Sequence record: PZ386965.1
Source: a phage
Strand: one strand, 5' to 3'
DNA length: 64,000 bases
In this document: piece by piece, positions 32,008-44,764 of the stretch
How the letters are laid out: each line of letters opens with the position of its first letter
Numbering within the stretch: position 1 is the first letter of the stretch
Notes under the pieces: model-generated
The model's input: the letters and a program-made list of their open reading frames with translations, nothing else
The model's database searches: none
What the model was told of the DNA's origin: nothing
Made by a program: the position numbers and the translations under genes

Positions 32008-32640
32008 TCACAGTACGTTAGTTACAAGGGTAATGATTTCTTTAGACACATTAGGGAAGTCAATGTAAGTATATTTACCACCGATCTTAATCTTAACATC
32101 ATTTTCAAGAGAAGTAAACAGCTTTGATTCAGTTTCTGACATGTTGTATGCAAAGATTCTAAGAGCGCCATCTCGTCGAATTTCAATTTGGCGAATGCCT
32201 AGAACTCGTTTAGCGAATCGAACTTCTAAGTTACTACGGTTTTCACCAATTTCTTTAACTTCAACTTTATCTTTAATATTTTCAAAAACAAAGTTTGCTA
32301 ATTCATGCATTTCAGGAGTAACTCCACGTGCTTTTCTGGTGTTACGTTTCTGAAGAAGTTCTGGAGCATTTTCTTGGGCAAAGAGGTCTGCAGCTTTTTG
32401 GATAATATCCATTGCTTCGCCTGTTGCTACAAGTCCATCACCGGATTTTTCGACTAAACCTTTCTTAATCAATACACCAATGTTAGAGTTAACAACTGAT
32501 GCACTGTATTCTGCTTCCAGAGCTTCACGGACATTGGCAGCAGTGGTGAAGTTGTTCTTAATGATATAAACCATTATTGCAGCAGTTTTTTCATTCAGAG
32601 CGTTTTCAGAAGCTTTGATGATGTAAGTAACTTTAGACAT
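32008..32640 (-). CDS. motA: MotA middle-transcription activator
   Basis: 210 aa; MSKVTYIIKASENALNEKTAAI...SNIGVLIKKGLVEKSGDGL matches MotA. Confidence 0.8.
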   Translation of the reverse strand: MSKVTYIIKASENALNEKTAAIMVYIIKNNFTTAANVREALEAEYSASVVNSNIGVLIKKGLVEKSGDGLVATGEAMDIIQKAADLFAQENAPELLQKRNTRKARGVTPEMHELANFVFENIKDKVEVKEIGENRSNLEVRFAKRVLGIRQIEIRRDGALRIFAYNMSETESKLFTSLENDVKIKIGGKYTYIDFPNVSKEIITLVTNVL

Positions 32641-32706
32641 TTTATTTCTCCAAATTAGTATTTGTTTTGATAGGTCTATAATATCATGTTTGAAGCAAAA
32701 GTAAAC
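32632..32706 (-). repeat. duplicated promoter/leader/start-codon module, copy 1 (motA)
   Basis: About 75 bp near-identical to 32951-33027, including ATGTCTAAA start and early promoter. Confidence 0.6.
32678..32706 (-). promoter_or_regulatory. sigma70-type early promoter (motA), copy 1 of duplicated module
   Basis: Minus strand GTTTAC-17 nt-TATTAT then AGACCTATCAA. Confidence 0.45.
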
Positions 32707-32743
32707 TTTATTTTGGGCTCTTTTTCAAAAGCCCTGGTAAAAT

Positions 32744-32959
32744 TTACAAACTCATTTCTTTAATAAGGCTAATAAGTTTTGCCTTTTTAGAACGAAGCTT
32801 TTCTAAATGATGTCCATTTGAACCGCGAACCACTAAAGAATTGATTTCAACTTCTAAGAAATTTAATTCTTCAACAAGTGCTTTACGAGGAGCATTCATA
32901 CCAGGTTTAACTTTACCGAAACGAGTAGTTGTGTTTTGGGTTAATTTCATTTTAGACAT
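32744..32959 (-). CDS. hypothetical protein (71 aa)
   Basis: ORF track; shares duplicated promoter/leader/start module with motA. Confidence 0.45.
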   Translation of the reverse strand: MSKMKLTQNTTTRFGKVKPGMNAPRKALVEELNFLEVEINSLVVRGSNGHHLEKLRSKKAKLISLIKEMSL

Positions 32960-33027
32960 TTTATTTCTCCAATTTGGTTGTTTTGTTTTGATAGGTCTAT
33001 AATATCACGTTTGAAGCACATGTAAAC
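32951..33027 (-). repeat. duplicated promoter/leader/start-codon module, copy 2
   Basis: Near-identical to 32632-32706; heads the 71-aa ORF 32744-32959. Confidence 0.6.
32998..33027 (-). promoter_or_regulatory. sigma70-type early promoter, copy 2 of duplicated module
   Basis: Near-identical to 32678-32706. Confidence 0.45.
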
Positions 33028-33038
33028 TGTTTTGTGAG

Positions 33039-33070
33039 AAAAAAAAGCACAAAAGGGAGCCGAAGCTCCC
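33039..33070 (-). terminator. UUCG-tetraloop hairpin terminator
   Basis: GGGAGC-UUCG-GCUCCC then UUUUGUGCUUUUUUUU on minus strand. Confidence 0.55.
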
Positions 33071-33146
33071 TAATCATGTTTGTCCAACCAATACAGCCAA
33101 ATCACTAGTGCAGCTATTGCACCGAGAAATCCTAAGGCTAGGGCAC

Positions 33147-34472
33147 TCAAAGTGCCTCCAAGTCTTTAGTGTACTCTGTCACAACATCAGTAGACTTCCA
33201 ATACTCATTTTCTTCTTTCTTAGCTTTAGCTTCTTCTGCTAGTTTACGTGCTTCGTCGGAAGTGATATGGAAGATGTTAAGACCCACCAGTTTATCGACA
33301 TGTTCTTTGTACATTTCGATTTGTGCTAGCTCTTCAGTCAAAGCTTTACGAGTCTTGCCCTGAATCACGATTTCACCGTTGATAACTTTTTTGATGAAGT
33401 GTGCCTTAGCAAAAGCCAGTTTAAATGCTTTTTCAGATTCAAGGATTTTGTTGTCAATACGTTTCTGAACGTAAGTCTTACGGACTTCAACAAAATCTTT
33501 GATTAAGTCCACTACGTTATCGTAGACTGCTAATTTACCCTTTTCATTAATCACTGTGATGTTTTGTGAACGACGTTCGATGAGACTAAAATCTTTCATG
33601 ATTTTTTCATGACGTAGCTCTTCATCATCAGGAAGCGAGTACTCTTTACGGAACTTCACCTTAAACCCAAAGCCGTGTTCACCACAATCATCTTCCCATG
33701 AGATTAGACCTTTGTCTTCCAACGGGTCAAGAACCTTACTCACATACGTTTCACGGTCGAATTTATACGGGATTTCAGTTATCTGCATTTGAGTGCGAGA
33801 TGTGAACTTATATGTTCCGTGAATCTCATAACGCCCATCAACTTCATGTACTTCACCATGGAATTCCGGGAATTCAACTTTTGGCTTAGTGACATTTTTA
33901 CCTTGAAGAGCTTGTAATACAGCCTTTTTTACCGATTTAAAACTATGAGGCAGAATACTTGTTGCGTAACCGGTTGCAATACCAGATACACCATTCAAAA
34001 GAACTGTCGGAATAATAGGAAGATAGAATTTTGGTGGAACGTGTTCTTTATCTTCATGAGCTGGAGCATATTCAGTATCTTTATATACGTTATAGAAATT
34101 TTTACTTACACGAGCAAAAATATAACGAGATGCTGCAGCTTTTTGGACTGTTCGAGAACCAAAGTTGCCTTGACCATCTAATAGTGGATAGTTGTTATTC
34201 CATGTGTTAGCCATCAATGCACCTGCATCTTGTGCAGAAGATTCACCATGGTGATAACCTAAATCTGCAACACCGCCTGCAATTGACGCAAGTTTATGAA
34301 ATTTTTCTTTATTACCACGAGCCAAATCTAACGCACGATGGACCACAAAACGTTGAACCGGCTTAAATCCATCAATCATGTTTGGGATTGCACGGTTTTC
34401 AACGGTGTACATCGCATATGCTAAGGCTTCGTTATCAATAATACTTTTTAGATTACGAGAATTCAATTGCAT
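33147..34472 (-). CDS. 52: gp52 topoisomerase II medium subunit (GyrA-like)
   Basis: 441 aa; ...AMYTVENRAIPNMIDGFKPVQRF... DNA breakage-reunion domain. Confidence 0.9.
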   Translation of the reverse strand: MQLNSRNLKSIIDNEALAYAMYTVENRAIPNMIDGFKPVQRFVVHRALDLARGNKEKFHKLASIAGGVADLGYHHGESSAQDAGALMANTWNNNYPLLDGQGNFGSRTVQKAAASRYIFARVSKNFYNVYKDTEYAPAHEDKEHVPPKFYLPIIPTVLLNGVSGIATGYATSILPHSFKSVKKAVLQALQGKNVTKPKVEFPEFHGEVHEVDGRYEIHGTYKFTSRTQMQITEIPYKFDRETYVSKVLDPLEDKGLISWEDDCGEHGFGFKVKFRKEYSLPDDEELRHEKIMKDFSLIERRSQNITVINEKGKLAVYDNVVDLIKDFVEVRKTYVQKRIDNKILESEKAFKLAFAKAHFIKKVINGEIVIQGKTRKALTEELAQIEMYKEHVDKLVGLNIFHITSDEARKLAEEAKAKKEENEYWKSTDVVTEYTKDLEAL

Positions 34473-44707: not shown

Positions 44708-44764
44708 AATATTCTCCTCTTGTTTTGATATGACTATAGTATCATAGGCCATAGTTGTTGTACA

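Follow-up and report, generated by a model that had tools for sequence, protein, structure and literature searches.

Two early promoter-leader-start modules bracketing a removable 71-aa gene upstream of motA in an RB69-like phage are probably PeSL-family cassettes

The window analyzed here is a stretch of 64,000 nucleotides of phage DNA (record PZ386965.1). Its source was identified as a Mosigvirus (RB69-like T4-type phage): over the 1.4-kb stretch around the locus, identity was 99.6% to Shigella phage SHSML-52-1 and ~98% to many RB69-like phages. All genes at the locus are encoded on the minus strand, where the order is gene 52, a 26-codon ORF with a TTG start, a hairpin with a U tract, module 2, a 71-aa ORF, a second hairpin, module 1, and motA (Table 1). 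Gene 52 is annotated as such or as DNA topoisomerase II in SHSML-52-1, RB69, and T4. The 26-codon ORF had no PHROG match and is the positional counterpart of T4 motA.1; at the same overlap with gene 52, T4 encodes the 49-aa motA.1 and the Dhakavirus phage JS98 a 34-aa ORF with an ATG start. The motA product matched MotA_activ (PF09114, 2.3e-39) and MotCF (PF09158, 2.2e-08) in Pfam, both over the curated cut-offs, corresponding to an N-terminal activation domain and a C-terminal MotA-box binding domain. It also belonged to phrog_1345 (7.8e-90), and the gene is named motA in relatives. A homing endonuclease or transposon was rejected, as the ORF listing contained no such ORF between gene 52 and motA.

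Table 1. Features between gene 52 and motA, listed in the direction of transcription.
Feature	Coordinates	Strand	Basis and remarks
Gene 52 (topoisomerase II medium subunit)	33147..34472	-	ORF listing; conserved upstream neighbour
Hydrophobic 26-codon ORF, TTG start (predicted)	33070..33150	-	Read from sequence; overlaps gene 52 stop codon
Intrinsic terminator after gene 52 (predicted)	33040..33071	-	Terminator scan and RNA fold
Module 2, promoter-leader-start of 71-aa ORF	32951..33027	-	Promoter scan, alignments
Module 2, promoter elements	-35 GTTTACA 33027-33021; TG 33007-33006; -10 TATTAT 33004-32999	-	Sequence
Module 2, transcript elements	predicted +1 near 32992; SD GGAG 32970-32967; ATG TCT AAA 32959-32951	-	Sequence
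71-aa cargo ORF (phrog_6200)	32744..32959	-	ORF listing, PHROG
Hairpin after 71-aa ORF	32715..32734	-	RNA fold
Module 1, promoter-leader-start of motA	32632..32706	-	Promoter scan, alignments
Module 1, promoter elements	-35 GTTTACT 32706-32700; -10 TATTAT 32683-32678, TG before it	-	Sequence
Module 1, transcript elements	predicted +1 near 32671; SD GGAG 32651-32648; ATG TCT AAA 32640-32632	-	Sequence
motA, middle-mode transcription activator	32008..32640	-	Pfam, PHROG, annotation in relatives

Each module is preceded by a hairpin. The terminator scan identified AGGGAGC-UUCG-GCUCCCU (33054-33071) followed by a U-rich tail, with a folding energy of −16 kcal/mol (z = −3.4), and T4, RB69, and JS98 all have a hairpin at the position matching this gene 52 terminator. 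The hairpin after the 71-aa ORF, GGGCUUUU-GAAA-AAGAGCCC, has an 8-bp stem and a GAAA loop (−12.3 kcal/mol, z = −2.7), and the A-rich upstream region of module 1 lies 3' of it. It has no U tract, and the terminator scan made no terminator call there; some upstream transcripts therefore probably read through into motA. Its JS98 counterpart, GAGCUCUU-GAAA-AAGAGCUC (−17.3 kcal/mol, z = −5.6), keeps the stem via a compensatory G-C to A-U change, which supports the hairpin.

A preliminary description of this DNA had claimed that the two modules are near-identical across an early promoter, a leader with its ribosome-binding site, and the first codons, and had set an identity under ~80 percent as grounds for abandoning the claim. 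Alignment on the minus strand bore it out at exactly these coordinates: the 75 nt of module 1 (32706 to 32632) and the 77 nt of module 2 (33027 to 32951) were identical in 69 of 77 columns (89.6%), with six substitutions and one 2-nt indel. Shuffling one copy gave 46.5 ± 2.2 identities and a maximum of 54. Two exact words common to the modules, a 25-mer (GATATTATAGACCTATCAAAACAAA) and a 22-mer (TTGGAGAAATAAAATGTCTAAA), had no further match in the 64-kb window, even with three mismatches allowed (0 expected by chance), and a repeat search recovered the same pair, cut into two by the indel. We also compared 41 candidate early-promoter modules from the window and the rest of SHSML-52-1 (the 99.6% relative); of the resulting 820 pairs (mean identity 0.62, sd 0.05), modules 1 and 2 tied for the top at 0.83 over 105 nt. 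The conserved part begins at the −35 GTTTAC and takes in the extended −10, an unstructured leader, the GGAG ribosome site, and ATG TCT AAA, so that MotA and the 71-aa protein both start MSK, as had been described. Through the leader end, the Shine-Dalgarno, and the three codons, 22 of 22 nt are identical, and other family members differ there. Because identity runs on through this non-consensus sequence, the modules are homologous and not merely consensus-like.

Both modules have the anatomy of T4-type early promoters, which carry GTTTAC at −36 to −31, an A-rich stretch at −40 to −44, a TGn motif, and a −10 box with A at −11 and T at −7 (PMC1524935, PMC2988021; Miller 2003, Nolan 2006, Hinton 2010). 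These elements were all read in the modules. The promoter scan scored 10/12 consensus matches for module 2 and 9/12 for module 1, each with a spacer of 16 and TG present, and the A-rich stretches before GTTTAC are CACAAAACA (module 2, as in T4) and CAAAATAAA. The sequence AGACCTA after the −10 box places C at −3 and −2, and C at −3 to −1 has been reported for RB69 early promoters (PMC1524935). The predicted leaders are ~30 nt long and A/C-rich, with GGAG 8 nt before the ATG in both copies. A structured leader was rejected, since neither leader (−2.6 kcal/mol for module 1; −1.7 kcal/mol, z = −0.1, for module 2) folds better than shuffles. The sole match to a known RNA family was preQ1-II, which spanned terminator and promoter with 29.5 bits, below its gathering score of 47, and was attributed to chance. 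Promoter activity, transcription start sites, and termination are here predicted from sequence features.

The 71-aa ORF was assigned to phrog_6200, a PHROG family of unknown function (2.8e-40), and was present in 94 phage records from Mosigvirus and Dhakavirus. No Pfam family was found for its protein, the best match being RACo_C_ter at E = 0.16. Between the window and JS98 orf253, dN/dS was 0.21 at a dS of 1.16, compared with a dS of 1.00 for motA; the dN/dS identifies the ORF as a real gene under purifying selection. By these values it has been at the locus for about as long as Mosigvirus and Dhakavirus have been separate, and is as old there as motA. An AlphaFold2 model (pLDDT 76) placed helices at residues 23-44 and 50-70, and the protein is predicted to consist of a disordered basic N-terminus followed by a two-helix hairpin. 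Foldseek against viral models matched uncharacterised T4-like phage proteins only, and a word-indexed search returned 8 close homologues only. HMMER against 1.84 billion representatives returned the protein's own cluster and two long repetitive proteins, which we judged to be coiled-coil noise. A 66-aa paralogue (36% identity), itself preceded by a module of the same promoter family, occurs elsewhere in Mosigvirus and T4-like genomes and is absent from the 64-kb window. Conserved, dispensable, small, and predicted to be early, the 71-aa protein fits the profile of a host-takeover or anti-defence factor, which is our guess from context.

The modules belong to a dispersed promoter/leader family. 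The 20-mer GATAYTATAGACCTATCAAA, comprising the −10 box and the initial transcribed region, was found in 34 IMG/VR stretches with up to 7 copies per genome, each copy followed by a Shine-Dalgarno and a different small ORF; the contigs were from Mosigvirus, Dhakavirus, and some T4-like phages. A whole-genome scan of SHSML-52-1 gave further members, one of which matched module 1 as closely as module 2 does, and weaker members lie in the window near 44743, 996, 57456, and 57026. The upstream CACAAAAC motif is common in the wider module family. The leader sequence TATAGACCTATCAAAACAA... is strongly conserved and precedes many early genes in Mosigvirus, Dhakavirus, and some T4-like genomes.

The occupancy of the site in Mosigvirus was investigated with a hypothetical deletion product as the query, in which the sequence upstream of module 2 was joined to module 1 and motA. 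This query aligned uninterrupted, at ~97.5% identity, with RB69 and many other Mosigvirus genomes, and in two pieces with ORF-bearing genomes. Approximately 76-81 of the ~150 Mosigvirus records (GenBank/RefSeq duplicates counted) carry the 71-aa ORF, while RB69 and about half of the records have no such ORF and one chimeric module. Mosigvirus JS09 holds both states (SSE1 empty, ST0 filled). Filled and empty sites were intermixed when 20 genomes were clustered by their flanks; the flanks are so little variable (2-3% divergent, 68 variable columns) that this intermixing has little phylogenetic weight and the events cannot be counted. The genomes without the ORF, RB69 included, are best read as deletions.

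Two diagnostic blocks were used to trace the copies: A, the spacer just after GTTTAC, and B, the leader, each numbered 1 or 2 for the window module carrying that variant. Three combinations occurred at empty sites, namely A2-B1 in RB69 and PTK, A2-B2 in 8 genomes, and A1-B2 in moskry and mar007P3; the junction of B2 with motA was matched at ≥99% identity by 60 records. The A2-B2 class implies a crossover within the 22-nt stretch covering the Shine-Dalgarno and ATG TCT AAA. Filled sites can be mosaic as well. A module-1 leader precedes the 71-aa ORF in phiEC1 and ST2 (8 records total), SF has the module-1 spacer on module 2, and NHEP11 has a module-2 leader before motA. These combinations and mosaics require repeated exchange between the two copies, which may have taken place either within one genome or between co-infecting phages, and the mosaic copies in genomes that keep the ORF point to gene conversion.

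JS98 and other Dhakavirus genomes have the same architecture, with an orthologous ORF (72-76% aa identity) in the same place. Concerted evolution is indicated: the JS98 copies have JS98-specific bases in common, and copies from one genome differ at 2-3 of 45 positions, those from different genera at 5 of 45. All Dhakavirus orthologues of the ORF start MNK, whereas those of Mosigvirus start MSK like MotA. The ORF therefore probably acquired a motA-type 5' end by copying. The shared start codons would most simply be a conversion tract from motA into the 71-aa ORF. Module 2 lies directly after the gene 52 terminator, which is the place of the single motA promoter in T4 and RB69. By position, then, it would be the "original" motA promoter; sequence alone does not prove this orthology because CACAAAAC is common in the wider family.

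The T4 motA early promoter and its RegB-cleaved leader are known from Uzan et al. 1988/1990, in the parts relayed by PMC2988021 and PMC3014915. It is the promoter of the same gene at the same position after the gene 52 terminator, and GTTTAC with CACAAAAC upstream, GGAG, and ATG TCT AAA are common to T4 and the present phage. T4 differs in having a single promoter, no 71-aa ORF and motA.1 instead, and another −10 and leader.

Other cargo was found at the same site. The Dhakavirus contig L032 keeps the terminator, hairpin, and modules but has a 75-aa ORF where the 71-aa ORF would be. This 75-aa ORF recurs at a T4-like locus (L017), again with that hairpin and a Dhakavirus-type promoter, before a T4-type motA; at a conserved CTATCAA in L017, the T4 motA promoter gives way to the foreign Dhakavirus-type leader, and TATAGACCTATCAAAACAA... 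marks the left junction of this intergeneric cassette transfer. At ≥95% identity, the 75-aa ORF was present in 138 records, among them HP3 and other named T4-like phages. In a further contig (L018), the site is taken by a 73-aa ORF, which in IME08 stands in tandem with the 71-aa homologue; Mosigvirus genomes carry a 66%-identical relative of the 73-aa ORF at a different locus. An empty Dhakavirus site was also found (L037).

These observations resemble the promoter-early stem-loop (PeSL) cassettes of T4-type phages (Arbiol et al. 2010, PMC2839356; Comeau et al. 2014, PMC4122927). In a PeSL, which stands before small unknown ORFs, a strong early promoter is combined with a hairpin, an A/T-rich region, a Shine-Dalgarno, and a start codon; the stem-loop belongs to the promoter or adjoins it and serves as terminator or attenuator (PMC2839356, PMC4122927). 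The criteria used for PeSLs include mini-circle excision and promoter and terminator activity in reporters (PMC2839356, PMC4122927). Here, as there, a composite sigma-70-type element of ~100 bp is conserved and repeated around the genome before small unknown ORFs. A hairpin lies just upstream of each module, the one before module 2 being a predicted terminator, both modules contain the A/T-rich region, Shine-Dalgarno, and start codon, and the promoters (TTTACA/TTTACT, TATTAT, TG) follow the T4/PST consensus TTTACW-N17-TAYWAT (PMC4122927), except that the −35/−10 spacer is 16 nt and not 17. In many family members, moreover, the −10 box lies within a 10-bp palindrome (−16.5 kcal/mol, z = −6.4), the type that makes up the most frequent PeSL class (PMC2839356). 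A small ORF lies between direct copies, relatives differ by the ORF plus one cassette, and the cargo is replaced; two copies alternate with one chimeric copy in three block combinations. The published precedent is RB49, whose ORFan192 lies between two PeSLs, and phi1, which has a single PeSL (PMC2839356, PMC4122927).

The locus also differs from the described PeSLs. The flanked genes include motA, a conserved regulator adjoining the likewise conserved gene 52, in place of an ORFan deep within a hyperplastic region, the hairpins are upstream of the promoters and unrelated to one another, the repeat reaches the first three codons, and ~150 genomes with several block combinations and mosaics are available instead of one phage pair. 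The motA locus and RB69 go unmentioned in PMC2839356 and PMC4122927, which makes the locus a new example of a mechanism already known. As such, it is an unusually well-populated PeSL example and not a new kind of element.

A further parallel is offered by the internal-protein (IP) loci of T-even phages, whose repeats include a conserved N-terminal targeting peptide. As far as their description by Repoila et al. 1994 is carried over into PMC2839356 and PMC4122927, variable small genes there sit between conserved promoter/leader-type repeats and are shuffled among related phages, with a different cargo class and at a different locus.

Consequently, we consider the two modules, with a probability of roughly 0.8, to be PeSL-family cassettes at a recombination-prone site that bracket a removable gene, and not the product of a one-off duplication. 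Each cassette would comprise, in order, a hairpin, an A-rich region, GTTTAC, the extended −10 (TGaTATTAT), a ~30-nt leader, GGAG, and a start codon. Host sigma-70 RNA polymerase would initiate at both promoters immediately upon infection, and the 71-aa protein and MotA would therefore be made together. As direct repeats of 77-100 bp, the modules are also substrates for the phage's homologous recombination. As the comparison of genomes shows, such recombination removes the ORF with one module and leaves a chimeric single module, as in RB69 and about half of Mosigvirus; it also converts one copy by the other and generates mosaics, including the MSK start on the ORF; and it replaces the cargo by other small ORFs, as in Dhakavirus and Tequatrovirus.

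The preliminary description had instead suggested promoter capture by duplication, by which the small gene came to be co-regulated with motA. In its adaptive form, this holds that the promoter-leader-start of motA was duplicated locally and fixed because it gave an unrelated gene motA-like immediate-early control. Part of that proposal stands: the segments are homologous, their identity covers the Shine-Dalgarno and the first three codons, motA-type sequence probably overwrote the 5' end of the ORF (MSK against the Dhakavirus MNK), and the 71-aa ORF is under purifying selection. Co-regulation of the ORF and motA is likewise plausible. The origin by capture fares less well. The module comes from a dispersed family that heads many early ORFs and is not a private copy from motA, and the copy before the ORF is the one that sits where T4 and RB69 have their single motA promoter. 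The ORF is as old as motA (dS 1.16 against 1.00), and in JS98 its orthologue is already headed by a separate module that lacks the MSK and Shine-Dalgarno identity, so that expression did not depend on this duplication. The gene and one module are moreover missing from about half of the Mosigvirus records, and other ORFs fill the same slot elsewhere. The pattern thus fits PeSL shuffling better, and we regard adaptive capture as unlikely.

A similarly speculative idea, to which we give slightly more room, concerns the conserved leader: TATAGACCTATCAAAACAA... might be a functional 5'-UTR signal, or a favoured recombination point that makes the gap between gene 52 and motA a genuine cassette integration site. 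As a signal, it could serve S1/RegB recruitment, translation enhancement, or promoter escape. Convergence, in which selection of all T4-type early promoters towards one strong consensus produced the likeness, is much less probable still. Such promoters do have long consensus stretches across the UP, −35, TGn, and −10 elements (PMC2988021, PMC1524935), and the candidate modules already average 0.62 identity. The module pair, however, lies ~4 sd above that background, its complete identity over 22 nt falls where other members differ, and the chimeric single copies and mosaics show physical exchange. An artefact, whether a collapsed or expanded assembly or a 71-aa ORF that is not a real gene, has a negligible chance: short direct repeats can mislead assemblers in general, with nothing specific pointing to it here, but the same architecture recurs in ~80 independently sequenced genomes and a second genus, and the ORF has its own PHROG family and a dN/dS of 0.21.

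On the PeSL reading, the locus provides a clean natural example of the gain, loss, and swapping of a small early gene in T4-like phages with the essential neighbours undisturbed, and the cargo sits directly before the master regulator of middle transcription. It leaves current concepts unchanged. Since filled, empty, converted, and alternative-cargo states are all present in public genomes, the site is a possible test bed for PeSL recombination and, by the same token, a possible safe landing site for early-expressed genes in RB69-like phages. It also identifies a conserved but dispensable 71-aa protein, predicted to be immediate-early.

Regulation of the two genes by phage factors was considered last. 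The MotA box, (a/t)(a/t)(a/t)TGCTTtA, sits 12 ± 1 bp upstream of the −10 in place of a −35 (PMC2988021). A MotA-dependent middle promoter was rejected for the modules, as just 7 nt separate TTTTGCTTCA and ATGTGCTTCA from TATTAT and there is a good −35; the modules also have no TAnnnT at 11-13 nt from the −10. A MotA-box-like TGCTT(C/T)A in the spacer of the motA promoter raises the possibility that MotA shuts off motA and the cargo gene, and a literature search found no report of MotA autoregulation. In T4, the motA mRNA is cut by RegB in its Shine-Dalgarno site (PMC2988021). The cleavage site is an unpaired GGAG in the translation initiation region, with GGAGRAYARAA as the strong consensus (PMC3014915). 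RegB cleavage of motA mRNA has been shown in T4 only and is predicted here from the GGAG, which both mRNAs would carry. In the modules, GGAG is followed by AAATAAA, matching 5 of 7 positions of RAYARAA, the leader is unstructured, and a regB gene is annotated in SHSML-52-1, the closest genome.

The promoter-leader-start unit at the motA locus belongs to a dispersed early-promoter family whose other members precede different genes. One of these, a third module in the Shigella phage SHSML-52-1, matches module 1 at 83% identity across 105 nt, shares the spacer TTTTGCTTTAAACAT with it and heads a hypothetical 326-aa gene in the nrdC-like region. Weaker members within the window precede other small ORFs. 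Many family members carry a 10-bp palindrome, AGGTCTATAG...CTATAGACCT, which covers the spacer and the -10/+1 region and folds at −16.5 kcal/mol (z = −6.4); it is absent from both modules at the motA locus.

Feature coordinates in the window and in compared phage stretches (L handles)
Feature	Location	Strand	Remarks
TGCTTCA in promoter spacer, module 2	about 33012-33018	-	sequence
TGCTTCA in promoter spacer, module 1	about 32691-32697	-	sequence
Hydrophobic ORF, 26 codons, LSALALGFLGAIAALVIWLYWLDKHD	33070-33150	-	TTG start; overlaps gene 52 stop codon
Weaker promoter/leader-family members	window 44743, 996, 57456, 57026	-	4-6 mismatches to the 25-mer common to modules 1 and 2
Third module	L056 26253-26330 (SHSML-52-1 record about 150252-150329)		outside window
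66-aa distant paralogue of 71-aa ORF	L056 13017-13263; L022 2081-2327		
Gene 52-motA slot with different small ORFs	L017 1060-1740; L032 390-990; L018 880-1440		other phages
Promoter regions with 10-bp palindrome	L005, L006, L011, L016, L020, L023, L025, L031, L033; window about 57456		

The 71-aa ORF also has a distant relative. A 66-aa paralogue (36% identity, with the RFGK...EMS pattern in both) occupies a different locus in the genomes of Mosigvirus and T4-like phages, downstream of a module of the same family, and is not present in the window. In other phages, the slot between gene 52 and motA is occupied by a 75-aa ORF (MKFKIENEIV...) or a 73-aa ORF (MKTLNINSFF...). In the T4-like locus L017, the T4 motA promoter meets a Dhakavirus-type leader at CTATCAA, a sequence junction which suggests cassette transfer between genera.

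Both motA-locus modules contain TGCTTCA in the promoter spacer. The equivalent in the Dhakavirus phage JS98 is TGCTTTA, a perfect MotA-box core, and the T4 motA promoter spacer carries TGCTTTG in inverted orientation. Use of TGCTTCA as a middle promoter was ruled out, as just 7 nt separate the motif from the -10 box. MotA might repress its own promoter; a literature search on such repression returned nothing. An Rfam preQ1-II riboswitch match (32998-33086, minus strand; E = 0.013; 29.5 bits, below the gathering score of 47) overlies the terminator hairpin and promoter and was judged to be due to chance.

The 26-codon ORF at the end of gene 52, which is without annotation in RB69-like genomes, has a GGAGG 4 nt ahead of its start codon. 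Its positional counterpart in T4 is motA.1 (49 aa, with an ATGA overlap), and that in JS98 is a 34-aa ORF with an ATG start. The window ORF resembles a conserved membrane peptide expressed by translational coupling.
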